From positions 6,017 to 70,016 of the forward strand of contig JACNJZ010000045.1 of assembly GCA_014382295.1 (NCBI GenBank): 64,000 nucleotides of DNA, given 5' to 3'. Shown here in pieces: positions 30,291 through 59,176 of the stretch. The position numbers and the translations under genes are program-made. The notes below the pieces were generated by a model. That model was not told where the DNA came from. It saw only the letters and a program-made list of their open reading frames with translations, and made no database searches. Every line of letters starts with the position of its first letter. Positions within the stretch are counted from its first letter, which is position 1. Origin of the DNA: Candidatus Desulfobia pelagia. GTDB lineage: Bacteria > Desulfobacterota > Desulfobulbia > Desulfobulbales > SURF-16.

Positions 30291-30300
30291 TTGGCACTCC

Positions 30301-30454
30301 CATAAAAAGTCATGCTGCAGCGCCCAGATGGCTAAGCAAAAAGTTTGATAAACAAGGCGCAGTGTTTTTAACAGGGATTTGATCATACATGTCGTATATC
30401 AAATGTCTGTCAAAAACCTGCAACACAGTAGATCGGACTTTTTGCGACGCCATC
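30301..30454 (-). repeat. Structured intergenic repeat, copy B (~154 nt, reverse orientation), inserted between two nuo-operon genes
   Basis: The reverse complement aligns with copy A (2254-2395) over both conserved flanks. The central stem GCAGGTTTTTGACAG / CTGTTAAAAACACTGC pairs but differs in sequence from copy A (GTAGCAATTTTCCAGG / CTTGAAAAATTGCTAC). Confidence 0.75.
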
Positions 30455-31963: not shown

Positions 31964-33493
31964 TTACGGCAACAGTACATTCGCCATGGGAGCTATACCG
32001 GTCTGCATGCCAATGACCTGTTCAAGCAAATGGGCCACGCTTGCATGCATGACATTGATAAACGGCTTAGGTGCCAAACCTATCCAGAACACTAAAAGCA
32101 GTAACGGTGCCAGCGTAACGATTTCCCGAGTATTCAAATCAGACAGGCCGGTATGGATTGGATTTTCCGTGCCTCCCCATATCACTTTCTGCAGCATACG
32201 CAACATATAGGCTGCTGCCAGGATTGCCCCGGGAATGGCACAGGTGGCTATCAGTTTTGACTTAGCAAATCCACCGGCAAGAATCATAAACTCGCCGATA
32301 AAGCTATTTGTTCCGGGAAAGGCCAGCGACGAAAGTGAAAAAAATGCCAGAAAAGTCACATAGACAGGCATATACATGCCAACCCCCGCATTCAAAGCAA
32401 GTTCTCTGGTGTGGGTCCGTTCGTAAATAATCCCCACACAGAGAAACAGCGCTCCGGTAGTAATGCCATGGTTGATCATTTGCAGCAGAGCCCCTTCCAT
32501 GCCGTTGGGATTGAGAACAAAAATCCCCAGGGTGATAAAGCCCATGTGGCCCACACTGGAATAGGCAATCAATTTTTTCATATCACTCTGGGCAAGAGCT
32601 GTAAAACCGCCGTACAGGATCCCGGCCACAGACAACCATAAAATATACGGGGTGAAAGTAACGGAGGCGGCCGGGGTAATGGGCAGACAAAACCGCAGGA
32701 AACCATATGTGCCCATTTTCAAAAGTACGCTTGCGAGAATCACACTACCGGCTGTAGGAGCCTGAACATGGGCGGCAGGTAACCAGGTATGGAATGGAAA
32801 CATCGGAACCTTGATGGCAAAAGCCAGGAAAAACGCGACAAACACCCATTTTTGGAAGATTGAAGAATACCCTTGTCCCATCAGGAGTGGAATACTGAAG
32901 GTATGAGGGTCTGTATTAAAATAGAGAGCAATGATTGCCACCAGCATCAGTACCGAACCTGCCAATGTATAGAGAAAAAATTTAATCGAAGCATAGATCT
33001 TGCGTTCCCCCCCCCAGACGCCGATAAGAAAAAACATGGGGATGAGTGTTGCTTCCCAGACGATATAGAAAAATACAAAATCCAGGGCCATGAATACGCC
33101 TAACATGGTCGATTCAATGAGCAGAAGGCAGAACATGAACGCCCTCACCTTGGTTGTAATGTATCGCCAGGAACAGAGGACACAGAGTGGCATCAGCAAG
33201 GTAGTCATCAGGACAAGCAGCAGGCTGATACCGTCTATCCCCAGGGTATAATTGACATTAAGGGCCGGAATCCAGCTATGATGCTCACCAAACTGATAGT
33301 TATGGGTGGTTGGGTCAAAACTGTAATAAAGGGGGAGTGAAACAGCTGCTGTCAATATGGTCACACCCAGCGCCCAATATTTCTGAAAATTTTCTCCTGG
33401 AATAACAAACAAAAGAAAGGCCCCTGCCAGTGGCAGAATCATCAGGATACTCAGGATGGGCAGCCACCCGTCATGCAATATCAAAAAATCCAT
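31964..33493 (-). CDS. nuoM: NADH-quinone oxidoreductase subunit M
   Basis: 509 aa. LGIDGISLLLVLMTTLL and FYIVWEATLIPMFFLIGVWGG are classic NuoM motifs. Confidence 0.85.
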   Translation of the reverse strand: MDFLILHDGWLPILSILMILPLAGAFLLFVIPGENFQKYWALGVTILTAAVSLPLYYSFDPTTHNYQFGEHHSWIPALNVNYTLGIDGISLLLVLMTTLLMPLCVLCSWRYITTKVRAFMFCLLLIESTMLGVFMALDFVFFYIVWEATLIPMFFLIGVWGGERKIYASIKFFLYTLAGSVLMLVAIIALYFNTDPHTFSIPLLMGQGYSSIFQKWVFVAFFLAFAIKVPMFPFHTWLPAAHVQAPTAGSVILASVLLKMGTYGFLRFCLPITPAASVTFTPYILWLSVAGILYGGFTALAQSDMKKLIAYSSVGHMGFITLGIFVLNPNGMEGALLQMINHGITTGALFLCVGIIYERTHTRELALNAGVGMYMPVYVTFLAFFSLSSLAFPGTNSFIGEFMILAGGFAKSKLIATCAIPGAILAAAYMLRMLQKVIWGGTENPIHTGLSDLNTREIVTLAPLLLLVFWIGLAPKPFINVMHASVAHLLEQVIGMQTGIAPMANVLLP

Positions 33494-33501
33494 TGTTTAT
33501 C

Positions 33502-33804
33502 CTATCCTCTCAACTGATTTATTTCGTCTGAATATACGGTCCGCCGGTTACGGAACAGGGCCAAGACAATGCCCAGACCGATGGCTGCCTCTGCAGCAGC
33601 AACAGCAATGATAAAAAAAGTCATGACCTGCCCGTGCAGATCAGTCAGGTAATGGCTAAAGGCAACAAAGTTCAGATTTGCGGCATTCAACATAAGTTCT
33701 ATGCAAAGAAACATGATGATCACATTACGCCGGGTCAAAAACCCATACATACCGATGGAAAAAAGTATGATGCTCAATGCCAAATACCAGGTTACCGGAA
33801 TCAT
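33502..33804 (-). CDS. nuoK: NADH-quinone oxidoreductase subunit K
   Basis: 100 aa, three TM helices, NuoK pattern ([16 protein letters not shown]...[11 protein letters not shown]). Confidence 0.9.
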
Positions 33805-34367
33805 TTCTTTCCTCCCCTTGTCAATGACCCTGAACCTTCCTTTTGGGCCATGACAACCTCTTGTTTATCCTGCTTGGCCAGAAGAATTCCGCCAACGACT
33901 GCCACTAGCAGAATCAGAGCGATTATCTCAAATGGCAGAATATACGATGTGAATATTTCAATACCCAGAGCTTTGGTATGAGTTGCCTGGCGGATTGCAT
34001 CCGTGGTCCATTTCCCAGGTGTTCCTAAGCGAAAAGACTGTGTAACCGCTATAAGTATCAAAAAAACCAGGAAGGAGATGAATTTGGAGATATTATGATT
34101 TGCAACAAAACGCTCGGTTTTGATCTCTTGCCTGATATTGACGAGGAACAGCACAAAAAGATACAAAACGAGAATGGCGCCGGCATATACGATAATCTGG
34201 ATCGCTGCCAGAAATTCCGCATTGAGCAACAGGTATAATCCGGCCATATGAAAAAAGAGGACAAGAACGGCCAGAACACTGTGGACAGGATTTCGAAACC
34301 GCACAGCAAGTATGCCGGTAATGACAATCACCAGTGCGCAGTATAGAAAGATAAACTTGCTCAACAT
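33801..34367 (-). CDS. nuoJ: NADH-quinone oxidoreductase subunit J
   Basis: 188 aa, membrane protein. Positioned between nuoI and nuoK with 4-nt and 1-nt overlaps. Confidence 0.8.
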
Positions 34368-35002
34368 TATTCTCCTCCAGTAATCTTTTTACTGCGTGCT
34401 TTTCTTCCTATAAACTGATTTTCAATACGCCAGTCGTCAGGAACAGGAACTCTTTTTGCCGCCGTCAGTTCCGATTCAGGAAGGCCTCTTGGTCGCCAGA
34501 ACGGATTAACATAACTTGATTGATCATATGTGCTGCTGCTCATAAAATCATCCCAATTGCTCAGCAGTTTTTCTTTATCAAAATAGATTGATTCCCGATC
34601 ATACGAGGCATACTCAAATATATCTGTCATGGTAATGGCGTTGACAGGGCATACTTCGACGCAATAGCCGCAATACACGCATCGGAGGGCTTCAATATTA
34701 AAACTATCCATTACCCTGCGGGAGGTCTCTTCTTCCTGATGATATCGAATACTGATACATCGGGATGGGCAGATTTGCGCACAACGCATACAGGCGACAC
34801 ATTTGGCAGTACCGCTCTGCGGATCGCGAACCAGGGCATGCTGGCCACGGAAACCTGGATAGATCGGCGGCTTTTCTTTCGGATATTGCCTGGTAATCGG
34901 CGGGGAAAACAATTTGCTGAGGGTGAGAGCCAATCCCTGCAAAATTTCCGTGTGGAAGATGGTTTGCAGCCAATTTCTTTTCGGTTTGTATTTTACGATC
35001 AT
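34367..35002 (-). CDS. nuoI: NADH-quinone oxidoreductase subunit I (2x[4Fe-4S])
   Basis: 211 aa. Two ferredoxin motifs (CVACMRCAQICP, CVYCGYCVEVCP). Longer than typical NuoI because of a C-terminal tail. Confidence 0.85.
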   Translation of the reverse strand: MIVKYKPKRNWLQTIFHTEILQGLALTLSKLFSPPITRQYPKEKPPIYPGFRGQHALVRDPQSGTAKCVACMRCAQICPSRCISIRYHQEEETSRRVMDSFNIEALRCVYCGYCVEVCPVNAITMTDIFEYASYDRESIYFDKEKLLSNWDDFMSSSTYDQSSYVNPFWRPRGLPESELTAAKRVPVPDDWRIENQFIGRKARSKKITGGE

Positions 35003-35018: not shown

Positions 35019-35987
35019 TTAATTTATGACGATCTTGACCAACCCGGTGAAAAAGATATTACCAAGGGCCAGTGGTATAAGAAGTTTCCAGCCAATCGTC
35101 ATCAACTGATCATATCTGTACCGTGGAAGTGTAGCCCGGATCCAAATAAAGACAAACATTATCAGGTACACTTTCAAAATGAACCATATCGGCGGGAAAA
35201 ATGGGACATTGAAGGGTCCGTTCCAGCCCCCCAGAAAGCAGACAACACCAATTGAGGCCATTACGAACATACCGATATACTCAGCCATGAAGAACATGGC
35301 ATAACGCATACCGCTGTATTCAGTGCAATAACCGGAAACAAGCTCCGTTTCAGCCTCGGGAAGATCAAACGGCACCCGATTTGTTTCAGCCAGCATGGCA
35401 ACAAAAAAAACGAAAAATGCCACAGGCTGGGTAAAAATATACATACCGGTAAAAGAGCTGCCCTGGGCTTCCACGATCTGTGTCAAGTTCAGAGAGCCGG
35501 ACAGCATCATGACTCCGACCAGGCTCAATCCCAGGGAAATTTCATAACTGATCACCTGGGCCATTGAGCGCATGCCGCCGAGCAGGGTATATTTTGAATT
35601 GGATGCCCAACCGGCAAGGATTATTCCGTAACTGGCCAGTGAACTCATGGCAAAGATGAAAAGGAGACCGATATTGATATCAGCAAGGGCCCAGCCTTTG
35701 GCAAACGGAAGGACAGCCAGCGAGACCATCATTGAAACAAGGCAAATAATAGGAGCTGCCAGGAAGAGGGGTTTATCCGCCTGTTCAGGAATGATATCCT
35801 CCTTGAAAAAACTCTTAATGCCATCGGCGATAGGCTGCAGAAGTCCATGCCATCCGACAAGCATTGGCCCCATGCGAACCTGCATATGACCGATGATCTT
35901 TCTTTCAAAATACGTGGCATAGGCGACATGCAGCAAAACGACGCCCACGAGAATTGCAATCTGAACCAATAATATAAGAATCTGCAT
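35019..35987 (-). CDS. nuoH: NADH-quinone oxidoreductase subunit H
   Basis: 322 aa. NuoH/ND1 pattern (ERKIIGHMQVRMGP, GLLQPIADGIK, NRVPFDLPEAETELV.GY.TEYSG). Confidence 0.9.
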   Translation of the reverse strand: MQILILLVQIAILVGVVLLHVAYATYFERKIIGHMQVRMGPMLVGWHGLLQPIADGIKSFFKEDIIPEQADKPLFLAAPIICLVSMMVSLAVLPFAKGWALADINIGLLFIFAMSSLASYGIILAGWASNSKYTLLGGMRSMAQVISYEISLGLSLVGVMMLSGSLNLTQIVEAQGSSFTGMYIFTQPVAFFVFFVAMLAETNRVPFDLPEAETELVSGYCTEYSGMRYAMFFMAEYIGMFVMASIGVVCFLGGWNGPFNVPFFPPIWFILKVYLIMFVFIWIRATLPRYRYDQLMTIGWKLLIPLALGNIFFTGLVKIVIN

Positions 35988-36114: not shown

Positions 36115-37332
36115 CTATCTGTCACACTCACCCAATACAACATCAAGTGTACCGATTATGGCAATCAGATCCGCCACCATGGCTCCCTTTGCCAGTGTCT
36201 TAAGGGCACCGATATGGATAAAGGAAGGTGAACGAATATGCATACGGTACGGGCTGCCATTTCCGTCACTGATAAAATAAAATCCGAGTTCTCCTTTGGG
36301 AACCTCTGTCGGTACATAGACATCGCCTTCCATAAAGATATCCCGATCCTCTACCAGCTTAATCAACCCCTGACGGGCCGGAGTGTCCACCTCCACCTTT
36401 CTCCCCGGTTTATTCGGCATGACCAGGTCCGGGGCATCATCACCGATAATAGGACCCGGCGGCATCTGTTCAATACACTGACGCAGAATATGATTGGATT
36501 GACGCATCTCCTCCATCCGGCAGCGGTACCGAGCGTATGTATCACCGGTCTCACCCCGGGGAATTTCAAAATCCACCAGATCATAGGCGGCATAGGGAAA
36601 ATGTTTACGCACATCATAGTCGACACCCGAGCCGCGCAGGCTCGCTCCGGTGAGGCAGAGACTGACGGCATCCCTGGCTGACACTGTTCCGACGTTAACC
36701 GTGCGTTTCAACCAGATGCGGTTGGTATCGATAAGGGTTTCATATTCTTCAATATTGGCAGGAAATGCATCGACAAAACGTACCAGCTTCATCATGATGG
36801 AATGGGTTACATCCTGTCTTACCCCCCCCAGTCGGGTATAGGTTGTGGTCAACCTGGCACCGCATAGCTCTGCAAACAGCTCAAGGAGCTCCTCTCGTTC
36901 CCGGAAGCAATAGAGAAATACAGTCATGGCCCCGATATCAAGAGCATGGGTCGCCAGCCATAGCAGATGACTGGAGATTCTTGCCATTTCACAGACCATG
37001 GTGCGTAAATATTTAGCACGCAGAGGCACCTCAATTTTCAGCAACTTTTCGACAGCCTCACAGTACCCGACATTATTGGCCATGGCGGCGATATAATCCA
37101 AGCGATCCGTAAGAACCAAGTTCTGGACATACGTTCGATGTTCGGCCAACTTCTCAAAGCCCCTGTGGAGATATCCTACATGGGGCTCACATTCCATGAT
37201 CGTTTCACCATCCAGATCCAGATCCACACGAAGTACGCCATGGGTGGCCGGATGCTGCGGACCCATCCTGAGTCGATAATGGTCCTCATTGCCGGCGGAT
37301 ACCGGTATATCAACAGTTGTTGCTTTAATCAT
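36115..37332 (-). CDS. nuoD: NADH-quinone oxidoreductase subunit D
   Basis: 405 aa. MGPQHPATHGVLR, HRGFEKL and a C-terminal ...LGECDR, all typical of NuoD. Confidence 0.92.
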   Translation of the reverse strand: MIKATTVDIPVSAGNEDHYRLRMGPQHPATHGVLRVDLDLDGETIMECEPHVGYLHRGFEKLAEHRTYVQNLVLTDRLDYIAAMANNVGYCEAVEKLLKIEVPLRAKYLRTMVCEMARISSHLLWLATHALDIGAMTVFLYCFREREELLELFAELCGARLTTTYTRLGGVRQDVTHSIMMKLVRFVDAFPANIEEYETLIDTNRIWLKRTVNVGTVSARDAVSLCLTGASLRGSGVDYDVRKHFPYAAYDLVDFEIPRGETGDTYARYRCRMEEMRQSNHILRQCIEQMPPGPIIGDDAPDLVMPNKPGRKVEVDTPARQGLIKLVEDRDIFMEGDVYVPTEVPKGELGFYFISDGNGSPYRMHIRSPSFIHIGALKTLAKGAMVADLIAIIGTLDVVLGECDR

Positions 37333-37888
37333 GCCCGCCTTTCTCTTTACTTAAATTGTCATAAAAATCAAATTTACCCAATTCCCGGCTCTTCGCTTTT
37401 AATTCCTCATAGCCGATCCATTCTGTGTCTCCGCGTAAAGGATATTCTTTGCGTAAAGGATGTCCTTCCCAGTCATCAGGGGTAAGGATTCTTCTCTGAT
37501 CCGGATGGGAATTAAAATTGATCCCCATAAGATCATAGCACTCTCGTTCAAGCCAGTTGGCGCCGATCCACAGTGAAGTTATTGACTCGATGGAGCAGTC
37601 ATGTTCCGGCACCTGGACCCGCAGCCGAAACATTTGTTTTTGAGAAATGGAATACAATTGATACACCACTTCAAACCGTTCAAAAAATGGTCCTTTTCTT
37701 TTGGAATTATCCACCCCGCAGAGACACATGAGATGATTCATGTTGCATTCATCCCGCAGAAATCTGCATATCTCAACAATATGGTCACGCTTTACCATCA
37801 CGGCTTTCTGGCCCAAGTGTTCGTAACTCTCCAGCAGATCATCTGGGAATTCCTCCCGTAATTTTTCAACTATACCAGTTGACTCCAT
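37325..37888 (-). CDS. nuoC: NADH-quinone oxidoreductase subunit C
   Basis: 187 aa. [22 protein letters not shown]...[11 protein letters not shown] pattern. Confidence 0.9.
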
Positions 37889-38391
37889 CTCCCCTGCTCC
37901 CGATTAATTTTTTCCTGCAGTTTAATGAGCCCCTCCAGAAGCGCCTCCGGTCGAGGCGGACAGCCAGGAATGTAGACATCCACCGGCAGAAATTCATCTC
38001 CCCCCTGAACAACAGCATAGGTATCAAACACTCCGCCACTGCACGCACATGATCCCATGGCCAGGACATAACGGGGTTCCGGCATCTGGTCATATACGCG
38101 GCGAACCACAGGAGCCATTTTCTTCGATATGGTTCCGGCCAGGATCAGACAATCGGCCTGACGAGGACTGGCGCGAAAGATAACACCAAATCGATCAAGA
38201 TCATTAGTTGAGGCACCGGCAACCATCATTTCAATGGCACAGCAGGCCAGGCCGAAGGTAACCGGCCAGATAGAACCGGTACGCCCCCAGTTGATTATTT
38301 TATTGAGCGGGCCAACCAGGGCACTGGCGCCGGGAATAAACCTGACACCATCCTGTATCTTGACCAGGCCACTGTTATTCATTTGTCCCAT
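37870..38391 (-). CDS. nuoB: NADH-quinone oxidoreductase subunit B
   Basis: 173 aa. [15 protein letters not shown] and GSCACSGG...IPGCPPRPE (N2 cluster ligands). Confidence 0.93.
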
Positions 38392-38753
38392 TGCAGATTC
38401 CCTTTTTTCCAGGCATAGATAAAGCCGACAAGCAGCAAAATAATGAAAATAAACATTTCCACCAGGGCAAACATTCCCAACTTGTCATATACCAGCGCCC
38501 ATGGGTAAAGAAAGATGGCTTCCACATCGAAAACGATAAAAAGGATCGCAATCGTATAAAATTTGACAGAAAACCGCATACGTGGCGCTTCAGTAGGGGG
38601 ATTGCCCGATTCATAGGCCACCAGTTTCTCAAAATAAGGCCGCTGCACCCTGAAATATCGTCCTATCCAGAGTGTGATCACCCCAAAAGCAATACCAACC
38701 AGCAACAGCATCAGTATGGCCAAGTATTCTGATGGTAAAAATGCACCGGGCAT
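38379..38753 (-). CDS. nuoA: NADH-quinone oxidoreductase subunit A
   Basis: 124 aa, three TM helices. YESGNPP and [15 protein letters not shown] motifs. Confidence 0.9.
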
Positions 38754-38884
38754 AATTTTCTCCCTGTTTTAGGTAGTTGGCTGTTTAGGCTGAAGGTTAT
38801 TTTTAGTTTCAATTATATATAATAATAAACATATGCCCATAATGAACAATTTTTCTTTCAGCCTTGCAACCTTTAAATTACCTC

Positions 38885-39391
38885 TTACGATTTGTTTTGC
38901 AGGAGTTGTTCGGCAAATTGCTGTCGTTTTGCTTCGGATGCTTTATCCGGGGTAGTAAACTCCAAACACCCTGACAAGCACTTTGTGACACATGCCGGTT
39001 TAAGGCCCTCATCGATCCTGTCTTTACACAGATCACATTTGCCGACTTTACCGGTCCTGCCGTTCCACTGCGGCACTCCCCAGGGACAAGCCGTCATGCA
39101 GGCCTTGCATCCTACGCAGAGAGCATCGTCAACAAAGACAATCCCGTCTTTGTCACGGCGCTGCATGGCACCTGTGGGGCAGGCTTCCACACACCACGGA
39201 CTTTCACAGTGAAAACAGGCCATATAGACAAAATCTGAAATCGGCATACCGTTCTTTATCCTGGGACCAACCTCCATGATTTTGCAGTAATAGGCATTTT
39301 TGGCTGAGTCGTTTTTATCTTTGCAATGTGCCTCGCAGGCCCGGCAGCCTATACACCGTTCCACCCGCTGCGTTACTTGATATTTACTCAT
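38885..39391 (-). CDS. Four-cluster [4Fe-4S] ferredoxin-type subunit (PsrB/DmsB-like) of a molybdopterin oxidoreductase
   Basis: 168 aa. CIGCRACEAHC, CFHCESPWCVEACP, CVGCKACMTACP and CDLC...C..C groups. No signal peptide or TM segment. Confidence 0.85.
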   Translation of the reverse strand: MSKYQVTQRVERCIGCRACEAHCKDKNDSAKNAYYCKIMEVGPRIKNGMPISDFVYMACFHCESPWCVEACPTGAMQRRDKDGIVFVDDALCVGCKACMTACPWGVPQWNGRTGKVGKCDLCKDRIDEGLKPACVTKCLSGCLEFTTPDKASEAKRQQFAEQLLQNKS

Positions 39392-39454
39392 GGTTTCAAA
39401 CCTCCATTTCTTGATCGTATATTGGATAGGATTTCAGTAAGTTCCATAAAGATA

Positions 39455-41554
39455 TTACGCTTCGGGCGGTTTTTCGCCACGGCTTATGGAAACAAAGGAT
39501 TCACAGAGATTAAGCCCCCCTCCTGCCTCATCCATTTTATCAAGGAGTCCGCTCATCAAACGCTGATCGCTCACTCCCTTGTTATACGTTCTTGTCTGTT
39601 TTGGAACTTGTCGTCCGAAACCATGAACTGTAAAGACAGCTTCAGGATGGATAAAATCGGTTACGTGTGCCGGAACAGTTCCCGTATAGCCGTCTGCACC
39701 GGTCATATTCACCCAGTCGCCATTTTTGATCCCCAACTTTGCTGCCTCAGCCGTGTTGATTGACACATAATTATAGGGCATCATCTCATTTAACAGCGGG
39801 TTATTCTGGGTATGGCTGTGGGTATGCAGGCCGCAGCGGCCAAAAACAAGACGATATTTCCCCTCCGGCGGCGCCTCTGGACTCTCGTACGGTTTTAATG
39901 ATTCCAACCCGGCCTTGGTCAGCTTCTCGCTTACTATCTCAATTTTCCCCGACGGGGTTTTAAATTTTCCTTCTAAGTTGTCAGGCTCTGGCGGAATGGG
40001 TGTATCCGTTAATGAAATAAATCCCTTTTCATCAAAATCCTCAATAGTATATCCAGTCGGTTCAAGCTGCCAGTCCCAAAGCTCCTCAATGGAATTGTAC
40101 GGAAAGTATTCATCTACACCCATTCGTGTTGCCAGTTGCTTAAAAATTTCCCAACTCGGTTTCGTGTCAAAAATAGGGTCGATTGCCTTCTTGCGTCGAG
40201 CGAGTCGTGGTTTCGCTCCTTTCTGCACGACAATGTGATTATCCCGCTCCAGGAAAGTGGCATGGGGAAGAATTACATCTGAAAACCAGCCATATTCGCT
40301 GTAATGAACATCAATGGAAACAAGTAATTCACAATTATTAAGTAATGCTTTTTGCGCCTCCGGATCTGGCATCTGAGTGAAAAGATCATGACGCATGGCG
40401 ACCCAGGCCTTAACCGGATAAGGTGAACCGGTCTTCATGGCCTCAAAATTCAGGTGTGCAAGACCGGGTCCCTTATCAAAATGAGTATATTTTTTACCGA
40501 CACCATCAGCCCTTTCGATGTCAGGTTTTGGGCAGTCAAGTGCTCTCGGACCTTTTTTTCCACAATCTCCGGGTCCCCTTGGAATGAGCAGCCCCCCTTT
40601 CTGTTCAATAGAGCCCATGAGCGCATTGATGGTATGAATGGCGCGGCTGGCGTAAAACGAATCTCTGTAACGGGTAAGCATCCAACCGGGATGGAAAATA
40701 ATACTCGGCCTATCGTCATTAATTTCCCGGACAAAATCCTTAATGGCGCCTTCCTCAACCCCGCACTCTTTTGCAGCCCAAGCCGGCGTATATTGTTCAA
40801 CAAAATCGCTTAATTCGCTGAAACCGGAAACCCATTGACTGACAAAGTCATTATCATAGGCTCCCTCCTTGATGATCTGATGCAGAATCCCAAGGCACAG
40901 GGCATAGTCCGTTCCGGGGCGTACCAGGAAAAATCGGGTTGCTTTGTTACTTGTCTTGGTCTGCCGGACATCCACATAGGTCAGGCGACCGCCGTTATCA
41001 AGCATGTCAAGAACCTGACGGTTTTCGGGTATGCGTAATGAATCAAAGGTGTTGCGGCCAAAGAGGACCAAGTGCCGAGAATTCTTGATATCATACTGGA
41101 AACCCTTTCGGCCAACGCCATTAATTGACAGACTGGCATGATGGGTGTTTCTGCCACAGGTATCATCATGGTTGGTATAATTTGGTGATCCAATGGCATG
41201 GCAAAAAGTTTTATACATATCCTGCCATGGGCCACCCCTCGAAGAAACAACTATAGATTCAGCTCCATATTTTTCCCTGATTCCTTTCAGTTTATCGGCA
41301 ACATAATCAAGGGCTTCATCCCAGCTTGCAGTGCGCCATTTACCCTCACCCCTTTCACCTTGCCGGATAAGCGGTTGCTGCGGTCTCTGCTGGTCTTTAG
41401 TAAGGGCAATCCCGGCTGTTCCCCGTGCACAAAGGGCACCGTTCAACAAATGCGGATTGCCCTCTATCCAGGTTACCTTATTATTTTCAGACTCAACGCG
41501 GATAGGACAACGAACAGTACACATTCCGCACATGGTGTACACAGATTTTTTCAT
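39455..41554 (-). CDS. Molybdopterin (Mo/W-bisPGD) oxidoreductase catalytic subunit, Psr/Phs-like, no Tat signal (start trimmed to MKKSVYTMCGMC)
   Basis: The track ORF is 720 aa. I prefer M22 as the start because AGGAG lies 8 nt upstream. It has an N-terminal CGMCTVRCP...C..G [4Fe-4S] motif and a candidate Mo-ligand Cys in SPNYTNHDDTCGRN, which is Psr/Phs/Arr-type spacing. No RR-type twin-arginine leader is present. Confidence 0.8.
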   Translation of the reverse strand: MKKSVYTMCGMCTVRCPIRVESENNKVTWIEGNPHLLNGALCARGTAGIALTKDQQRPQQPLIRQGERGEGKWRTASWDEALDYVADKLKGIREKYGAESIVVSSRGGPWQDMYKTFCHAIGSPNYTNHDDTCGRNTHHASLSINGVGRKGFQYDIKNSRHLVLFGRNTFDSLRIPENRQVLDMLDNGGRLTYVDVRQTKTSNKATRFFLVRPGTDYALCLGILHQIIKEGAYDNDFVSQWVSGFSELSDFVEQYTPAWAAKECGVEEGAIKDFVREINDDRPSIIFHPGWMLTRYRDSFYASRAIHTINALMGSIEQKGGLLIPRGPGDCGKKGPRALDCPKPDIERADGVGKKYTHFDKGPGLAHLNFEAMKTGSPYPVKAWVAMRHDLFTQMPDPEAQKALLNNCELLVSIDVHYSEYGWFSDVILPHATFLERDNHIVVQKGAKPRLARRKKAIDPIFDTKPSWEIFKQLATRMGVDEYFPYNSIEELWDWQLEPTGYTIEDFDEKGFISLTDTPIPPEPDNLEGKFKTPSGKIEIVSEKLTKAGLESLKPYESPEAPPEGKYRLVFGRCGLHTHSHTQNNPLLNEMMPYNYVSINTAEAAKLGIKNGDWVNMTGADGYTGTVPAHVTDFIHPEAVFTVHGFGRQVPKQTRTYNKGVSDQRLMSGLLDKMDEAGGGLNLCESFVSISRGEKPPEA

Positions 41555-41640
41555 TAGCTTTTCTCCTTTTCGATGAGGGCGATGCTGGCCCACCCCTTGG
41601 CATTCAAGATGCCGCATATACTGTAAACTGTTTTTTTCAT
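41554..41640 (-). other. 28-codon upstream ORF whose start mimics the oxidoreductase start; its TAA overlaps the main ATG (TAATG)
   Basis: The uORF begins ATGAAAAAAACAGTTTACAGTATATGCGGCAT (MKKTVYSICGI...). The main gene begins ATGAAAAAATCTGTGTACACCATGTGCGGAAT (MKKSVYTMCGM...). That is 24/32 nt identity by hand alignment. Confidence 0.4.
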
Positions 41641-41776: not shown

Positions 41777-42133
41777 TTAAGAAAGAACTTTGGCTACCTT
41801 TTCTTCCAGTTCCTCCTTGTCAATGGGCTTGACGCAGTATTCCTGGGCGCCAAGAGCCAGAGACTGGCGTGCTGTTTCAATGGTTGGATATCCGGTGAGC
41901 ATAATCACCCTTATTTCGGGATAAACTGCTTTAATTTCAGCCAACACCTCCACGCCGCTCATCTTTTTCAGTTTGATGTCAAGTATGACGAGATCCACCG
42001 TGTTGGACTTAATAAAATCAATAGCATCTTCCTCTTCAGTAAAGGTATGGACTTCATGGTCCTTTCTTTCGAGGATTCTTTTTATCAGAATTCCGGCATC
42101 ATAAACGTCATCTAATACCATAATGCGTGCCAT
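41777..42133 (-). CDS. Single-domain CheY-like response regulator (start trimmed to MARIMVLDD)
   Basis: The REC pattern is MARIMVLDD...DLVILDIKLKKMSG...VIMLTGY...CVKP. The 51 upstream codons of track ORF 41777..42286 overlap the preceding gene and were discarded. Confidence 0.85.
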   Translation of the reverse strand: MARIMVLDDVYDAGILIKRILERKDHEVHTFTEEEDAIDFIKSNTVDLVILDIKLKKMSGVEVLAEIKAVYPEIRVIMLTGYPTIETARQSLALGAQEYCVKPIDKEELEEKVAKVLS

Positions 42134-42138: not shown

Positions 42139-42783
42139 TTACTCCGTCTGATGTACCGGTAACATAGAACCGGTCGAGGGTCTTCGAGCAGACAATCCCG
42201 CCCTGTCGGCAAGAAAACAGCCGATCAACGTAAAAACATATGCAAGAAGAAAGACGACAGTAATACTCACCCCCTGCATAGCCCACCCCTTGTCTGACAA
42301 ATCAATGAGGTAGGGGGAGCCAAATTGGCTGATGAGCTTCTCTGATGGGAAAACAGTGCTCAGCCAATACTGAGAGAGAAAGAGAGGAATCATATACACT
42401 TGCATGTGTCTGGCGAAACGCTGGGCCAGGTACGTGTTGAAATCCTCATCTATTTCATTGTCTGTATACCGGTACAAAGAATCTCGTGCTTTCCAGTCGT
42501 TAAGTAGGTCAATATTCTTCTGCTGTAAACGTTGTGCTGTGAATTTTTCTTTGAACAGTTGATCTCTCTGGACAACCTTCATCCACCGACGAAGAAGTCG
42601 TGACAGCAGAGCGGTAGCCACGGCCACCAGGATGACCTGCCAGAGCACCGGGACATGCAGCACCATAAGGGGCTTGATAATGATCCACTCAAGTCCCATA
42701 CCGATAAGGGTAAAAAAAGGGCTGATCAGAGACTCAAAAAACCAGTCCAGAATGAATATAAATTGCTGAATCAATGTATCCAT
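42139..42783 (-). CDS. Membrane protein of unknown function
   Basis: 214 aa. About 3-4 hydrophobic segments separated by a charged coiled region (KEKFTAQRLQQKNIDLLNDWKARD). I recognise no family. Confidence 0.5.
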   Translation of the reverse strand: MDTLIQQFIFILDWFFESLISPFFTLIGMGLEWIIIKPLMVLHVPVLWQVILVAVATALLSRLLRRWMKVVQRDQLFKEKFTAQRLQQKNIDLLNDWKARDSLYRYTDNEIDEDFNTYLAQRFARHMQVYMIPLFLSQYWLSTVFPSEKLISQFGSPYLIDLSDKGWAMQGVSITVVFLLAYVFTLIGCFLADRAGLSARRPSTGSMLPVHQTE

Positions 42784-42874: not shown

Positions 42875-44569
42875 TTAGCGCAAGAAAGGAATAGCATTAG
42901 TATACTTCAAGAACACGATAATCAGGGCCAGTGCCAGCATTCGTTTCAAGAAGATTTCCGGAAGCTTTTTCTGGATTTTTGGTCCCACCATACCGCCACC
43001 CATGGCGCCAGCAGCAATACAGGCAGCCATAATCCAGTCAGGTTGATAACCCATCATGGCATATTTGGCGATAGCACCTGTTGAGGTGGCGAAGGTCCCG
43101 GCCAGGGCGATGGGTACGGCCAGATACATTGGATAGCCTGCCATGGTGGTCATGAACGGCATGAACATGAAGCCGCCGCCAACGCCAAAGGAGGATGCGA
43201 TAATACCCATAAGGAGGCCGGCGATCAGCATCATCAAAGGACGGGCGACAAAGGTCTCACCCCAGAACCGCATGTCAAACTTCATGAAATTAAATTTGTC
43301 GAATTCCACCTTGCCAAGTTCCATGGCCTTACCTGTTGCTTTGGCTTCTTTTACTGCCGCATTAAATTTCTGGATTATGGCCTTCATGGCCTTTTTCTTT
43401 TCAATGGATCCCGGCAGCGATTCTATAAAGAGTTTAATGCCGATAACCAGGCAGATGATACCCAAGTAAAATTTAAACGCCGCAAGATTCAAATACTTGG
43501 CCGAAAGGGGGGGGCCAATAAAAAAGGCGCCTAAGACAATACCGATGGCAAAAAAGATGGCAACAGGCCAGGCAAATCTTTTTTCCTTGAAATAGGTCAT
43601 GAGACCGGTAATGGGCGAACACAGGGTCAGGAACAGGTTCGTGGGTTTGATGGTGTTACCGGCATTAATACCGATGGGACCCTTGGTGCCGATGACGGTA
43701 ATCTGGAAGGCTGCGGTGAACAGACCGCCTGCCGCGCCCATGATAACAAAGAGCACGCCAATAATGAAGGAGCCGCCAATAACGATTAGCGGATTCATAT
43801 AGACACTACCGGTTTTAAAGAAGAACGTCGATTTTTCAATGGTAATAGGAGTGTCTATTTTCTCACCGTTAACATAGATTGCCAATTTTGTGTTTGGTGC
43901 CAGGTGTTTATAGGGCGTCATAGCCACAGAGAACTTGCCGGTAGTTTTATCCAGTTTCAAGGAAACACCTTTGTTCCATGCTTCATTCTGGACGCCGGAA
44001 TCGGTCATGATCATCCTGGCATTGCCGCCGCCGATGGGGAGTTCCTTGGCTACGGTGTTGATGCCAAACTTTTTCTCATGGGTAAAGGTCAGAAATTTCC
44101 ATTGGGCCTCGGAGTTAATAGGACCAAGCATTGATTTGACCGCAGGATCGATGTCACCCCATTGCTTGATTTTGTTGACCTTGACCTTAAATTTAAAGGG
44201 CGGGAAGGCAAATACGCCTGATGTCTGGCCCTTATCTGATTCCTTCATTTTGGCCAGATTGTCCGGGACATTGGTGATAACATAGTAGGCTGGGGGAATA
44301 GCTGTATCGCCAAAGGCGTCTTTGCCGTCTTTGCCATTTGTCAGGCGTTTCTTTTCCTTGGGCCCTGGAGCATCAGCAGGTCTGAACATTTTGTCGCTGC
44401 TGACAACAACATACAGGTCCTCACCCGGAGTGATGGTTCCCTCTATACTTACCGGGGTTCCGGCCTTGACTGTAGTTGATCCGATTGTTGCCTGTACTGC
44501 CCAGCACTGTGAAGCGATTGCCAGTGAGGCTATTGCCGCCAGTAAGGCAAGAAGTGAAATTCGTTTCAT
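42875..44569 (-). CDS. Signal peptide + ~260-aa extracytoplasmic domain of unknown type fused to a TauE/SafE-family permease (start trimmed to MKRISLL)
   Basis: An AGGAGG sits 9 nt upstream of the second ATG. The signal peptide is MKRISLLALLAAIASLAIASQCWA. The C-terminal ~300 aa are polytopic with TauE-type motifs (GAAGGLFTA, FGVGGGFMFMPF). Confidence 0.7.
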   Translation of the reverse strand: MKRISLLALLAAIASLAIASQCWAVQATIGSTTVKAGTPVSIEGTITPGEDLYVVVSSDKMFRPADAPGPKEKKRLTNGKDGKDAFGDTAIPPAYYVITNVPDNLAKMKESDKGQTSGVFAFPPFKFKVKVNKIKQWGDIDPAVKSMLGPINSEAQWKFLTFTHEKKFGINTVAKELPIGGGNARMIMTDSGVQNEAWNKGVSLKLDKTTGKFSVAMTPYKHLAPNTKLAIYVNGEKIDTPITIEKSTFFFKTGSVYMNPLIVIGGSFIIGVLFVIMGAAGGLFTAAFQITVIGTKGPIGINAGNTIKPTNLFLTLCSPITGLMTYFKEKRFAWPVAIFFAIGIVLGAFFIGPPLSAKYLNLAAFKFYLGIICLVIGIKLFIESLPGSIEKKKAMKAIIQKFNAAVKEAKATGKAMELGKVEFDKFNFMKFDMRFWGETFVARPLMMLIAGLLMGIIASSFGVGGGFMFMPFMTTMAGYPMYLAVPIALAGTFATSTGAIAKYAMMGYQPDWIMAACIAAGAMGGGMVGPKIQKKLPEIFLKRMLALALIIVFLKYTNAIPFLR

Positions 44570-44707
44570 TGTATTGTCTCCTCCTTTGGTCAATCCGGGA
44601 AAAGTTTCAATCCCGTTCGACTGTATTGTTTAGTACACGTCAGTTGTTTCTTCCCTTTTATGATTTTGTCACAGCACGCATAACCTCCTTTGCAAAGACG
44701 TTTTTGA

Positions 44708-46264
44708 TCATTTTTCCTCCTTATCGATGTTTTGTGTCTCTTTCCGACAGACCGGCAGCAGCACATGAAACGCCGTGCCTGTGCCGTCTTCTTTATTGGC
44801 AGGACTATCGACTGTGATCCTGCCGTCATGTTCCTGAATGATTCCATAGGAGACGGAAAGTCCCAGGCCGGTGCCCTTGCCCACTCTTTTAGTAGTAAAG
44901 AAAGGATCAAAAATTCTACCTTTCACTTCAGGGGGTATCCCCGGTCCAGTATCACGCACCATGCAATCGATCATTTTTTCTTCGGCAAGGTAGGAGGTGG
45001 TTATGGTAAGGCTCCCTCCATTTTCCATAGCTTGATGGGCGTTGTTTATTATATTGAAAAATACCTGTCGTATTTTCCCCGCATCCCCAGGAACAAGAGG
45101 TAAAGTTTCTGCCAAGATTTTATTCACCTGAATATGGTCAATATCAAGAATATGTTCGGTCACTGCCAGCACTTCATTAACGACTTCATTGAGGTCCAGA
45201 TCTTGTTTAAAACCTCCGGATTGTCTGGAAAACTTCAATAGATCGGCAACAATTTTGCGACAGGCCTTGGCTTGCCTTTCAATAACTATAAGGTTCTGTT
45301 TTTCTTCACTCTCTTTTGGAAAATCATCCTGCATAAGTTGGGCGTAGCCGAGAATGATACCCAGCGGTGTGTTGATCTCATGGGCAACTCCAGCTGCAAG
45401 CTGCCCAACTGAAGCCATTTTTTCCTGGCTTACGAGTTGATCTGTCATGGTCTTGAGCTTCGTCATATCTTTTGCAATACCTTCACACCCGATCATTTGG
45501 CCATGTTCATTGCGGATGGCATTCGCTGTAAGTAAAACATGACAGACAGAACCGTCCTTCTTCTCCATTTCAACCTCAAAATCCCGTACAAAACCATTCT
45601 TGTGAAGGGAAAGCAGATACGCTTCAAGAGCATCATCATTCTTAAAAAAAGAATGGATATTTAAATGTTCGGGAAGTGTGTCGTAGCCCATCATATGCAG
45701 GCCACTGTCATTAATGTCTGAAATAAGTCCTCCATTTGAACAGAAATAGACCATATCCTTGGAATTCTCAAAAAATTGCCTGAATTTTTTCTCAGATTGA
45801 GAAAGTTCAGCGGTTCGCTCTTCCACCATTTCCTCTAAATGCAAGTTTAAACGCATCATTTCGTTGGCCGCATTGATTCGTTGTCTGTTGGCGATTTCCA
45901 GCTTCCTGGCGTTACTTTCGACAATACGAAAGACCTCAACACCTTTATGGTAATAAATAGTGACAGCCGAGACGAAAATCATCATCAAGGAGTTAAACCC
46001 ACCGGAGAACGGCGAGATATGTGCCCATATAGCTTTATTGTCAAATATCAACAGAAACTGTTTGACAATATGACCAACCGCCCTGGAAATAGCAAAAAAC
46101 GCCAACGCAATGCTCAGATAATAAAGAAATCCCCAGATGAAATTTTCCGGCTGCTTGCGGGTCAACAAATAGGCATAACGTAAAGAAAGAAAGGAGAGGA
46201 TAATGATCATTAGTGAACCGATGATATCCGCTAAAGTTGTCGGATAAAGAGGTAGGCTGTTCAT
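44708..46264 (-). CDS. Membrane sensor histidine kinase (multi-TM N-terminus, PAS, HisKA, HATPase_c)
   Basis: 518 aa. H-box [14 protein letters not shown]-box [10 protein letters not shown], and G-boxes DTGPGI / GTGLGLS. Confidence 0.9.
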
Positions 46265-46827
46265 TCACCCTCCCCATTACTATCATCGGTTTCAACGGAA
46301 TGATAAAAAGTACGTAAAGCCAGAAACAGGAAAAAAAGAGCGGGAACACTGATCAGGTGATCGAATTTAGCTATATAATAGGCAAGTTTGGCAGAGGAAA
46401 ATGGACCATATATTCTCGTGTATAGATAACTACTCTCGGTATAAAAATCACTTCTATTAATATGAACCTCTATAGTATGGCCGACAAATGCAAGAACATT
46501 CCAGGAAAACATAAAGAGGCAGAAAAGGAGGAGATACCCCCAGCCACGCCCGCTAAATGAATTACGTTTTATGTCCCAGGCAAGATATACCAAGGAAGCC
46601 ATAAAAAGAATATGAGCCAACTGGTGTACGATAAGTCCCTCGGGGGCGTCATGAGTTTGCAGAGCCCAGGAAAGGGATGGGTGTAAAATAATAAAAGCTG
46701 TAGTCAGTATACATAAGAACGTTAAGGGTAGACGGTGGAGTATAAATTTCAAACACCTACCCCTGGTGCAGCAAAAATGATGCACCACGTCGAGGTGCCT
46801 ATAGAAAACTATAAATTCCGTCATCAA
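46261..46827 (-). CDS. His-rich polytopic membrane protein of unknown function, translationally coupled to the kinase gene
   Basis: 188 aa. 4-nt overlap with the kinase gene. About 4 TM segments with conserved-looking His residues (HDAPEGLIVHQLAHILF, VGHTIEVH). The start codon is uncertain (TTG 46827 or ATG 46824). Confidence 0.55.
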   Translation of the reverse strand: MMTEFIVFYRHLDVVHHFCCTRGRCLKFILHRLPLTFLCILTTAFIILHPSLSWALQTHDAPEGLIVHQLAHILFMASLVYLAWDIKRNSFSGRGWGYLLLFCLFMFSWNVLAFVGHTIEVHINRSDFYTESSYLYTRIYGPFSSAKLAYYIAKFDHLISVPALFFLFLALRTFYHSVETDDSNGEGE

Positions 46828-47992: not shown

Positions 47993-49663
47993 TTATTTGA
48001 ACTCGACAATCTTGGCATTATCAACATAATCCTTTGTTTCAAAGCCAGTCATGGTGATCATTTTTTTAGTAAGTTCAGCCATCTGCTTCATATTGCGGAT
48101 TATCATATCTAAATCCTCCAGCAAAGCTTCCGACTGGATATCATCACGCATAAGCTGGGCTGTTCCCAGGGCGGCAAAGAGAGGTGAATTCAGCTCGTGG
48201 GCAACAGTTCCGGCTATTTCCAATATGCCTTTAAGCTTCATTCGTTCCATTTTTTCCTGCTCCAATAATTGCTGGGTGGTTATATCTCGGACAGTGAAAA
48301 TAACAAACTCCACCTTGCCCTTGTCGTCTAAAATTGGATAAATAGACTGCTCAAGCCACTGATCATTTCCTTCCTTAACCTTATGAATAGTGGAGGTCGT
48401 CTTCTCCCCGCCAGACAGGATCAGGTCAACCGGACACATAGATTCTTCAGGATTATCCCAAGGTGAAATGAGGTTGTAAGGCCGCCCCAGGACCTCCTCT
48501 TCTGAGAAGGCATTTTCTTCAAGAAATCTTCGATTGGCCATGACTACATGTTTCCGGGTATCCAAGACAATAAGCTGAGCCCACAGGGAATCTATGATAT
48601 TTTGGAGAAAACGTTCATTTGCCTCAATCTGGTTGAAAAGAAGAGTTATTTTCTGATAGGTACGGGCATTTTGAATAGCATTGCCACCTTCCTCAGCCAG
48701 TGTTGCCGCAAAATTCACTTCACTTGAGGAAAAACAATGGTGTTCGGCGGTGAGCAACCTCAGGACCCCGATAATCTCAGGACCGTTTTTAATGGGAACA
48801 GCCAGAATGCTTTTAATGCCCTCTTTCTCCATGGAATCGTGATATCTCACCCGGGCATCATTGGAGGCATCATAGATTGCCACTGGTTCACCTTTCAGCA
48901 CGTCAAAAATGGAGTTTTCCCTTTTAACTTGGCCACGTTTCAAGTATTCGTCTGAAAGACCTGTGGCAGCCACCAGTTCCAGCTGATTAGTTTCAGGCTG
49001 GAGCAGACGAATAGTGCAGGCTTTCATTCCCATGACTTTAGGAAGTTTGTCAACAATGGTTTGTAAAATTTCATTCAGATTAAGGGTGGAATTGACCAGA
49101 CGGGATATTTCTTTCACTTCCTGGAGAAAATCCACCTGATTCTCCATCTCTGTAAAAAGTCTGGCATTGGAGACGGCAACCCCAATCTGCTCTGCCAAAG
49201 CCATGGAAAAGGAAATTTCCATGGCCGTGAAAACCCGCGTGCTTCGTGTCAAAAGTCGCATGATACCGATGATATGTCCCTGAAAGGTAATGGGCAGGGC
49301 CAAAACACTTTTAATACTCTCCCTGGCCGCCTCAGCACTGTGCTGATAATGCGGGTCAGTATCCAGAGCAGTTTTCGCTACCGGATTTCCACTCATGATC
49401 ATCTCCATGGATTCTTCAGTATCAATGGAGCCACGGGAAAGATACTCATCAGACAAGCCATGGGCAGCTCCCAGGACAAAAGTGTTCGTACTACTGTCAA
49501 GCAGCCTTATAGTTGCCGCATCAACATCAAGAAGCCCAGGAAGACGATGAACGACCATGTCCATAACCTGCTGGGGGTCAAGTACCATACTGATAAGTTT
49601 GGTGACTTTTTGAAATATCTTGAGGTATTCCTGTTCCGTGCTGGGGACTGTTACAGTTTTCAT
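47993..49663 (-). CDS. GAF-GAF-PAS-HisKA(DHp) signalling protein lacking an ATPase (HATPase_c) domain
   Basis: 556 aa. Two GAF-like blocks (each with AA.GLSDEYL), then a PAS-like block, then the H-box AGTVAHELNSPLFAALG. The protein ends ~75 aa later with no N/G1/G2 boxes. Confidence 0.75.
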   Translation of the reverse strand: MKTVTVPSTEQEYLKIFQKVTKLISMVLDPQQVMDMVVHRLPGLLDVDAATIRLLDSSTNTFVLGAAHGLSDEYLSRGSIDTEESMEMIMSGNPVAKTALDTDPHYQHSAEAARESIKSVLALPITFQGHIIGIMRLLTRSTRVFTAMEISFSMALAEQIGVAVSNARLFTEMENQVDFLQEVKEISRLVNSTLNLNEILQTIVDKLPKVMGMKACTIRLLQPETNQLELVAATGLSDEYLKRGQVKRENSIFDVLKGEPVAIYDASNDARVRYHDSMEKEGIKSILAVPIKNGPEIIGVLRLLTAEHHCFSSSEVNFAATLAEEGGNAIQNARTYQKITLLFNQIEANERFLQNIIDSLWAQLIVLDTRKHVVMANRRFLEENAFSEEEVLGRPYNLISPWDNPEESMCPVDLILSGGEKTTSTIHKVKEGNDQWLEQSIYPILDDKGKVEFVIFTVRDITTQQLLEQEKMERMKLKGILEIAGTVAHELNSPLFAALGTAQLMRDDIQSEALLEDLDMIIRNMKQMAELTKKMITMTGFETKDYVDNAKIVEFK

Positions 49664-59170: not shown

Positions 59171-59176
59171 TATATT

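Follow-up and report, generated by a model that had tools for sequence, protein, structure and literature searches.

How the widespread complex I-like enzymes without NuoE, NuoF and NuoG are supplied with electrons, or relieved of them, is a long-standing question in anaerobe bioenergetics, and it is raised again by a locus of Candidatus Desulfobia pelagia (contig JACNJZ010000045.1). Within the 64-kb stretch that we analysed, called the window in the following, the genes for a molybdopterin oxidoreductase (MopB) of the polysulfide/thiosulfate reductase (Psr/Phs) family and for a four-cluster iron–sulfur (FeS) protein, FeS2, stand upstream of such an EFG-less nuo operon. A preliminary description of the window had proposed that the pair docks on the Nuo complex as a replacement for its electron-input module. 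This interpretation was borne out in part: the conserved linkage of pair and nuo supports it strongly, while docking, the direction of electron flow and the substrate are what we infer. Because the same arrangement was present in every related genome examined, MopB–FeS2 is probably (we would put it at about 0.55) the missing electron entry or exit module of the EFG-less complex I, in place of the N-module. Docking itself is suggested by synteny, by a dedicated FeS clade and by the fact that the window has no second candidate for an anchor or input module.

A leaderless MopB–FeS2 pair upstream of nuoA

All genes of interest lie on the minus strand. The catalytic subunit (39455–41554, 699 aa) was assigned by Pfam, NCBIfam and alignment with PsrA as a cytoplasmic molybdopterin oxidoreductase of the Psr/Phs clade, and comprises the domains Molybdop_Fe4S4 (PF04879), Molybdopterin (PF00384) and Molydop_binding (PF01568). 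The open reading frame (ORF) finder returned 39455–41617, and we reassigned the start to the ATG at 41554 (MKKSVYTMCGMC). Since this ATG is preceded by AAGGAGAAAAGCTA and agrees with the lengths of the homologues (694–712 aa, 120 among the matches listed) and with their N-termini (MKKSVY or a near variant in those aligned or inspected), we took it to be the true start. The [4Fe-4S] motif FS0 (CX2CX3C...C) is formed by C9, C12, C16 and C42, all invariant in the homologue alignment. Cys133, likewise invariant across 16 homologues, lies opposite Cys173 of Thermus PsrA (2vpw_A), which we take to be the molybdenum ligand (Jormakka et al. 2008). This chain was also the closest solved structure (E 6e-116), with MopB residues 3–696 pairing with chain residues 38–747. 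Because the alignment begins at chain residue 38, only the region of the twin-arginine translocation (TAT) leader is missing from MopB. As had been described, the protein opens at the FS0 motif without a TAT leader, unlike the canonical PsrABC/PhsABC, and a twin-arginine motif was also absent from the alternative upstream start. The top curated NCBIfam family was thiosulfate reductase PhsA with 516.9 bits, which is under its equivalog cut-off of 694 bits; the other families scored lower (Fdh-alpha 255, DmsA 204, QrcB 140, ArrA 127, TtrA 67 and NuoG 56 bits). Among PDB entries, PsrA reached 392 bits, acetylene hydratase 190 and FdhF 165. Judged by bit scores, MopB is nearer to the Psr/Phs group than to the Fdh, Dms, Ttr, Arr, Qrc and NuoG groups.

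The partner subunit FeS2 (38885–39391, 168 aa) was characterised by Pfam (Fer4_11, PF13247, 5.4e-25), by its motifs and by an AlphaFold2 model. Its 16 cysteines form four ferredoxin-like motifs (C13–23, C59–71, C92–102 and C119–138) for four [4Fe-4S] clusters. The N-terminus is hydrophilic and no transmembrane (TM) segment was predicted, as the preliminary description had held. In the model (mean predicted local distance difference test score 87), residues 148–167 constitute a single C-terminal helix. The closest fold was PsrB (2vpw_B, TM-score 0.78), and HycB (7z0s_B) matched as well, also by sequence (3e-13). FeS2 is in this respect similar to the four-cluster connectors of modular pterin enzymes. 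Unlike PsrB, FeS2 is devoid of a C-terminal region of about 50 residues and has the single 20-residue helix instead. An NrfD/PsrC-type anchor was found neither among the multi-TM ORFs of the window, which agrees with the earlier account, nor in the gene tables of 11 related loci. Since both a TAT leader and an NrfD-type subunit are absent, the active site of MopB is expected to face the cytoplasm.

Downstream of the pair follow nuoA (38379–38753), nuoB (37870–38391), nuoC (37325–37888), nuoD (36115–37332), nuoH (35019–35987) and nuoI (34367–35002), all assigned by NCBIfam and Pfam and together representing the Q-module and the beginning of the membrane arm. The genes nuoJ (33801–34367), nuoK (33502–33804), nuoM (31964–33493) and nuoN (26771–28216), as well as one for an extra MrpD-like subunit of 493 aa (30456–31937), were recognised by NCBIfam. 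Two more genes encode a two-TM protein of 119 aa without a family match (30027–30386) and a divergent NuoL-like subunit of 596 aa (28247–30037), which shared 27% identity with NuoL of Desulfobulbus propionicus and aligned with it through the lateral-helix C-terminus. The order is A-B-C-D-H-I-J-K-M-(MrpD-like)-(119 aa)-(NuoL-like)-N, so that nuoA, B, C, D, H, I, J, K, L, M and N all belong to one operon, with L in divergent form. In line with the preliminary description, nuoE, nuoF and nuoG were found neither in the operon, where nuoD runs directly into nuoH, nor among the large ORFs of the 64-kb window. The membrane arm has four antiporter-like subunits versus the usual three; this arrangement recurred in two of the nuo-linked loci described below (L003 and L053) only, the remaining ones having the standard L-M-N set. 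NuoD matched its equivalog with 512.6 bits (cut-off 360), hydrogenase models stayed below 26 bits, and CxxC pairs were absent from the N- and C-terminal parts of its sequence. It is predicted to be an ordinary quinone-type subunit, not a [NiFe] hydrogenase large subunit.

NuoI (211 aa) carries a C-terminal tail of about 55 residues (YVNPFWRPRG...KR..VP..W; 34367–34534, minus). The tail was conserved in 14/14 MopB-linked Nuo operons compared, including the Thermodesulfovibrionales type, and had no counterpart in NuoI/TYKY of solved complex I structures, where no alignment went beyond query residue 161. A contribution of the tail to a docking surface is conceivable.

As described before, pair and nuoA share a strand and are separated by 131 nt (FeS2 stop codon 38885–38887, nuoA ATG 38753). 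The AT-rich spacer (38754–38884, minus) had been suggested to carry its own promoter. One promoter-like site was indeed present (TGGGCA-16-TATAAT, 38839–38812, 10/12 match), but the number of such sites in the region equalled the shuffle expectation. An intrinsic terminator between FeS2 and nuoA was sought on the coding strand, with negative result. The spacer also contains an inverted repeat (GGCTGAAAG...CCTTCAGCC). L003 (spacer 3220–3339) is the closest relative, and there this repeat (GGCTGAA(A/G)G ... CCTTCAGCC) is doubled and forms a very stable hairpin (–47.6 kcal/mol); the window keeps the stem with an AT-rich loop, and its folding z-score was –1.7 versus –6.7 in L003. Because no T-run follows, the repeat does not have the look of a terminator; possibly it acts in mRNA processing or stability and divides the soluble from the membrane part of the operon. 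A dispersed element resembling repetitive extragenic palindromes was rejected, as the repeat was barely above shuffle frequency and had no second exact copy in the window. A molybdenum cofactor riboswitch or another Rfam family, whether in the spacer or ahead of MopB, was likewise discarded: no match reached the gathering score anywhere in the window.

Conservation of the FeS2–nuo linkage

A scan of one genome per species yielded 80 loci, onto which the window proteins were mapped. The majority of MopB homologues belonged to a kinase/regulator/TauE cluster with no nuo nearby. These pairs, termed type 1, follow the order TM188, PAS kinase, response regulator, DUF8269-TauE, (TM214), MopB and an FeS protein of 150 aa, and were found in Desulfocapsa sulfexigens (L001), on a Desulforhopalus chromosome (L002) and, altogether, in about 70 loci besides L001. 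In a minority of loci (L003, L053, L004, L016 and the second pairs of L010 and L072), an FeS protein of 166–171 aa, 69–89% identical to that of the window, was followed by nuoA-B-C-D-H. Trees were calculated by neighbour-joining from uncorrected alignments of homologues only, without reference enzymes. FeS2 separated from the type 1 FeS proteins as a clade of its own, and this single, well-separated clade contained all nuo-linked FeS proteins. The nuo-linked MopBs fell into two groups, namely a deep pair (L010 and L072) and a sister group of type 1 (the window, L003, L053, L004 and L016). The trees thus indicate that the catalytic subunit was exchanged while the FeS2–nuo association stayed constant. 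Synteny of such MopB/FeS pairs with EFG-less nuo operons, which the preliminary description had put forward as a test, held for the FeS2 clade at every locus examined with at least 63% FeS identity, but not for type 1. A naive reading of the type 1 loci would have spoken against it, because most homologues do not stand beside nuo.

Two loci, L010 (10001–15551) and L072 (10001–16719), contain both pairs in tandem, MopB1-FeS1-MopB2-FeS2-nuoA. It is plausible from these gene orders that the tandem is the ancestral state and that the layout of the window, with a type 1-like MopB, FeS2 and nuo, arose by loss of FeS1 and MopB2. A hybrid MopB1/MopB2 gene left by such a deletion was rejected, since the window MopB was uniformly nearer to type 1 along sliding windows (63–88% identity, versus 40–63% to the nuo-linked MopB2 of L010 and L072). 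Immediately upstream of MopB we noticed a 28-codon ORF (MKKTVYSICGILNAKGWASIALIEKEKS, 41554–41640, minus), the TAA of which overlaps the MopB ATG (TAATG). Its first 10 residues resemble the MopB N-terminus (MKKSVYSICGMC in L002), and it is absent in L003, L053, L004 and L016. Apparently, a second MopB gene once lay directly after the response regulator and was deleted, leaving this stump; alternatively, the ORF is possibly a coupled leader peptide. A further locus, L065 (1–12549), begins inside nuoC of an EFG-less nuo operon, with a NuoD 83% identical to that of the window; here, a type 1 MopB-FeS pair comes immediately after nuoN.

Two further searches extended the sample. A metagenome scan with the FeS2 alignment returned 80 loci, of which 76 contained distant, uninformative FeS proteins and four were close relatives; it added two MopB-FeS2-nuoABCD loci (L083 and L084). 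A protein search gave at least 120 FeS clusters of 131–171 aa with 57–93% identity, and genomic contexts were retrieved for ten of them. There, nuoA directly followed in L163 (a metagenome-assembled genome (MAG) of Thermodesulfobacteriaceae), L164 (a Desulfurivibrio MAG), L167, L168 and L169, and in Desulfobulbus propionicus DSM 2032 (L171, a complete genome), where a MopB of 694 aa and an FeS protein of 167 aa are separated by 13 nt from nuoABCDHIJKLMN. Altogether, nuoA came directly after FeS2 in 15/15 loci with at least 63% FeS2 identity and enough flank, the window included (L003, L053, L004, L016, L010, L072, L083, L084, L163, L164, L167, L168, L169 and L171 being the others). With four distant FeS2 loci (L166, L165, L170 and L085), this context sample is small and biased to long contigs. 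The gap between FeS2 and nuoA mostly measured 8–27 nt, and 73–131 nt in L010, L163, L003 and the window. Since the same FeS clade precedes nuoA directly in all 15 loci, the adjacency is not accidental.

It might be objected that the neighbourhood is functionally meaningless and was simply inherited in one lineage, as most loci come from a single order, Desulfobulbales. We regard this as very improbable: the linkage persists down to 63% FeS identity, covers several Desulfobulbales families plus Thermodesulfobacteriaceae, outlasts both the exchange of the MopB type and the change in the membrane arm, and recurs with another nuo order in Thermodesulfovibrionales (Nitrospirota). In this latter locus, L166, an FeS2 from a cluster that includes a Thermodesulfovibrionales member (59% identity to that of the window) stands 8 nt ahead of nuoB-D-I-A-C-H-J-K, so that the FeS2–nuo linkage extends over two phyla.

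The other distant FeS2 genes (57–60% identity) had different partner genes downstream. In L165 (5001–8644), NuoE-like, NuoF-like and 2Fe-2S+4Fe-4S genes follow, and in L170 (5001–7930) and L085 (6001–8563) a GltD/SudA-like NAD(P)H oxidoreductase gene. By gene content, these systems look like soluble, NAD(P)H-linked cytoplasmic reductases of the thiosulfate/polysulfide type; we found no description of them in the literature. The main difference between FeS2 and the type 1 proteins was a conserved C-terminal extension, roughly TPxxASxxKRQxFAEQLL, which occurred in 18/18 partnered FeS2 proteins and in none of type 1. Because the distant FeS2 genes have varied redox partners and all 18 partnered proteins share the C-terminal helix, the gene after FeS2 appears to behave like a slot for an electron-transfer partner, which in the clade of the window is Nuo, and FeS2 looks like a connector to interchangeable partners. 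We tentatively go one step further, at slightly less than even odds, in suggesting that the FeS2 clade marks a plug-and-play cytoplasmic enzyme of the Psr/Phs type with at least three back-ends (an NADH module of the NuoEF type, an NAD(P)H module of the GltD type and, in two layouts, the complex I Q-module with membrane arm), and that the Nuo form is a real respiratory supercomplex.

These data also bear on the view that MopB–FeS2 is a soluble cytoplasmic reductase, co-regulated with Nuo yet unattached to it, which exchanges electrons through a diffusible carrier (such as ferredoxin, flavodoxin or a thiol protein like DsrC). Separately from it, the 11-subunit Nuo would then take reduced ferredoxin, as proposed for other EFG-less complexes, and the operon would be shared because both serve the same sulfur metabolism. 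Type 1 pairs, the MopBs of which are 63–71% identical, apparently work without an adjoining partner gene, and the 131-nt spacer of the window carries its promoter-like site. In Dissulfuribacter thermophilus (2026, PMC13490349), the model includes a free cytoplasmic PhsAB-like enzyme fed by electrons from AprAB, and under thiosulfate disproportionation this enzyme, TauE and a 'transmembrane protein co-occurring with TauE' were up, while Nuo was down. What this view leaves unexplained is that in all 18 cases the FeS proteins with the additional C-terminal helix, a dedicated clade, have a redox partner encoded beside them and that NuoEF-like or GltD-like subunits fill the slot after FeS2 in the paralogous operons; moreover, the FeS2–nuoA gaps are short in most loci. 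The anticorrelation in D. thermophilus may not bear on FeS2, because its PhsAB genes (DITHS69_2027/2028) are apart from nuo (2265–2274), and the pair may not be of the nuo-linked type. On balance, we consider an unattached reductase unlikely, though of the competing views it is the one to be taken most seriously.

Neighbouring genes and related systems

Upstream of MopB, the cluster continues with a stand-alone response-regulator receiver (41777–42133, minus; Response_reg 5.8e-25; likely start MARIMVLDD), which is conserved immediately 5′ of MopB in many loci, and with a membrane protein of 214 aa (42139–42783, minus) that has about three TM segments and no family match and travels with the TauE gene. 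This protein was considered as a hidden anchor, but neither family matches nor gene context gave evidence of such a role, as in relatives it accompanies TauE and not MopB-FeS; it is the counterpart of the D. thermophilus 'transmembrane protein co-occurring with TauE/SafE' (PMC13490349). Next comes a TauE/SafE permease (42875–44593, minus, or 42875–44569 with the other bound; Pfam TauE 2.1e-27) with an N-terminal signal peptide and an extracytoplasmic domain of about 270 aa (DUF8269 in relatives). A PAS histidine kinase (44708–46264, minus; Pfam) is preceded by a 188-aa membrane protein (46261–46827, minus), with which it forms a conserved sensory unit; more than 40 loci kept the order TM188, kinase, regulator. 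Directly downstream of nuoN lies the gene of another, small permease of the TauE/SafE family (25913–26671, minus; Pfam TauE 1.6e-45). TauE/SafE-type genes at both ends of the region, as noted earlier, were thereby verified. The sulfur-oxyanion theme attached to them also gained support for the upstream permease, because most type 1 loci and several of the FeS2 loci have TauE beside MopB-FeS; judged by this context, the permease likely transports a sulfur substrate or product. Farther away (56699–61717, plus, and 47993–49663, minus), the window has four genes that are also found close to the type 1 MopB-FeS clusters of D. sulfexigens (L001) and Desulforhopalus (L002). They encode a PPDK_N/PEP-utilizer protein of 823 aa, a protein resembling protein-tyrosine phosphatases, a sigma-54 response regulator and a GAF-PAS kinase, and suggest a wider conserved regulatory neighbourhood.

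The idea of coupling a Psr/Phs enzyme to Nuo is not new. For Thermodesulfovibrio sp. N1, Frank et al. 2016 (PMC5165239) described NuoABCDHIJKLMN (THER_0569-0582) linked to A and B subunits of the Psr/Phs family (THER_0567/0568) and proposed the same coupling. As in that cluster, the A and B genes of the window lie immediately upstream of an 11-subunit EFG-less nuo operon on the same strand. The Thermodesulfovibrionales locus L166 differs in its phylum and its nuo order (B-D-I-A-C-H); the window, unlike Thermodesulfovibrio, has a type 1-like MopB, the extra MrpD-like subunit and the upstream kinase/regulator/TauE cluster. The window is thus a further, somewhat variant instance of an arrangement and a hypothesis published in 2016, for which the comparative basis is now much broader.

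A structural parallel is offered by the formate hydrogenlyase of E. coli (7Z0S/7Z0T), in which the leaderless FdhF and the four-cluster HycB sit on HycF/HycG/HycE plus HycC/D. The window likewise encodes a leaderless cytoplasmic MopB with a four-cluster FeS connector, which would be attached to the corresponding NuoI/B/C/D-like part. Formate hydrogenlyase ends in a [NiFe] hydrogenase without a quinone site, whereas the window has a quinone-type NuoD, the full A/H/J/K/L/M/N arm and a MopB of the Psr/Phs clade (PhsA 517 versus Fdh-alpha 255 bits). The periplasmic reductases PsrABC (Thermus 2VPZ, Wolinella) and PhsABC (Salmonella) provide the closest A and B subunits, with the same FS0 and Mo-Cys ligands, and share the problem that menaquinol would have to reduce a couple of much lower potential; the pair of the window is unlike them in lacking NrfD-type PsrC/PhsC. 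The MOLY cluster (MolyABC), put forward as a marker for sulfur disproportionation, also comprises an A+B pair from the CISM family (complex iron–sulfur molybdoenzymes) implicated in this metabolism. As an identity of the window pair it was rejected, since MOLY is predicted to be extracytoplasmic, TAT-exported and accompanied by a TorD/DmsD chaperone, whereas our pair has neither a leader nor a chaperone gene.

The cytoplasmic PhsAB-like enzymes of the sulfur-disproportionating Desulfobacterota D. thermophilus (DITHS69_2027/2028) and Desulfolithobacter dissulfuricans GF1 (PhsA-2/B-2, with a PhsB-2 of 150 aa, the type 1 length) are, like the pair of the window, leaderless and have no C subunit. 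They are associated with TauE and its co-occurring transmembrane protein and are thiosulfate-induced, but neither pair adjoins nuo. The window pair is the FeS2/nuo-linked paralogue, equivalent to PhsA-1/B-1 of GF1: the supplement of the GF1 study gives, consecutively, PhsA-1 (701 aa), PhsB-1 (168 aa), NuoA (124 aa), NuoB (173 aa), NuoC and NuoD. The GF1 authors noted Phs without a C subunit and did not connect Phs and Nuo. In D. thermophilus, the authors call for study of a potential membrane association of the cytoplasmic PhsAB-like enzyme (PMC13490349).

Electron path, direction and meaning

If MopB–FeS2 serves as the entry or exit module, as we favour, FeS2 would act as an electron wire between MopB and the neighbouring complex I-like enzyme, which it would meet at the NuoI/NuoB end. 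The path would lead from the molybdenum bis(pyranopterin guanine dinucleotide) cofactor through FS0 and the four [4Fe-4S] clusters of FeS2 to N6a/N6b in NuoI, N2 in NuoB and menaquinone, with electron transfer coupled to proton translocation by the membrane arm and its four antiporter-like subunits. Membrane transport of the sulfur oxyanion would be the task of the TauE-type permease, while PAS kinase and response regulator would govern expression.

The pair may be an electron output, i.e. a reductase, rather than the input module of the preliminary description, because of its homology to reductases and its NAD(P)H-linked paralogues. The proton-motive force would then lift menaquinol electrons through a reversed Nuo, and thiosulfate or polysulfide would be reduced in the cytoplasm. 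The thiosulfate couple lies at –402 mV versus –74 mV for menaquinone, and menaquinol reduces thiosulfate physiologically in Salmonella PhsABC (PMC13490349). In the proteome of GF1, NuoA and NuoB of the PhsA-1/B-1 operon were detected only under thiosulfate disproportionation, and relative to sulfate reduction the abundances (percentage of the normalized spectral abundance factor) were 0.124 vs 0.087 for PhsA-1, 0.068 vs 0.046 for PhsB-1 and 0.098 vs 0.047 for NuoC. The three proteins were thus 1.4–2.1-fold higher, at similar levels and with the same direction of change, which we count in favour of a coupling of pair and Nuo. As to driving force, Stoffels reportedly found in 2012 that thiosulfate reduction by PhsABC is driven by the proton-motive force. 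Given that Psr/Phs enzymes are reductases, that the paralogous back-ends oxidise NAD(P)H and that proteomes respond to thiosulfate, we favour the reductive direction; provided that coupling exists, the enzyme would normally be a reductase, with a modest preference over the opposite direction.

In that opposite direction, the same supercomplex would oxidise a low-potential sulfur compound at MopB (e.g., sulfide to polysulfide, or sulfite plus sulfide to thiosulfate) and pass the electrons forward through Nuo to menaquinone with proton pumping, as the preliminary description had envisaged with its input module. This is the usual working direction of complex I, and with a donor near –400 mV more energy would be gained thanks to the extra antiporter-like subunit. 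In D. dismutans, Nuo was up-regulated in S0 disproportionation, which was interpreted as extra energy conservation, and the operon is carried by the Desulfurivibrio MAG (L164), a genus said to grow by sulfide oxidation. On the other side, the back-ends of the paralogous systems oxidise NAD(P)H, as is typical of reductases, and cytoplasmic PhsAB-like proteins rise with thiosulfate as the substrate. To our knowledge, all characterised enzymes of the Psr/Phs clade are reductases, and we know of no pathway in which a MopB enzyme would have to form thiosulfate or polysulfide in the cytoplasm. As a sub-case of the docked module, oxidation shares its probability of coupling, and we rate it as rather unlikely, below the unattached reductase.

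Several points weigh against the reading we prefer. Operon linkage fits functional coupling via a diffusible carrier equally well, and nuo may also be transcribed alone, because the gap is the longest seen and contains the 10/12 promoter-like match. A biochemical or structural Psr/Phs–Nuo complex was not reported in the literature that we searched. Substrate specificity in the Psr/Phs clade is not readable from sequence (PMC12998232). The GF1 authors regarded Phs as a minor player, and the shifts were modest. Concerning direction, we estimate that a fixed cost of 4–5 H+/2 e– would cancel the approximately 1 ATP gained per sulfite oxidised when thiosulfate is disproportionated, which would make the reverse operation of Nuo too costly for disproportionation. 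This estimate favours the oxidative direction or a role outside disproportionation, and for this reason forward electron flow remains a serious alternative.

Recent papers on sulfur disproportionation invoke an 'unknown oxidoreductase' for Nuo and raise the question of where an anchorless cytoplasmic PhsAB-like enzyme takes its electrons from. The comparative evidence connects the two, and Desulfobulbus propionicus DSM 2032 and Desulfolithobacter dissulfuricans GF1 are cultured carriers of the arrangement. If our proposal is true, complex I can swap its N-module for a catalytic molybdoenzyme, and the Nuo-linked form would be a proton-coupled sulfur-compound:menaquinone oxidoreductase. This would explain how electrons move between menaquinone (–74 mV) and sulfur couples at about –270 to –400 mV, and would supply the missing link from the quinone pool to low-potential cytoplasmic sulfur chemistry in sulfur disproportionators. 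The version in the window, with its four antiporter-like subunits, would have a higher H+/e– ratio, and the enzyme as a whole would be a living analogue of the MopB ancestor that is fossilised in NuoG.

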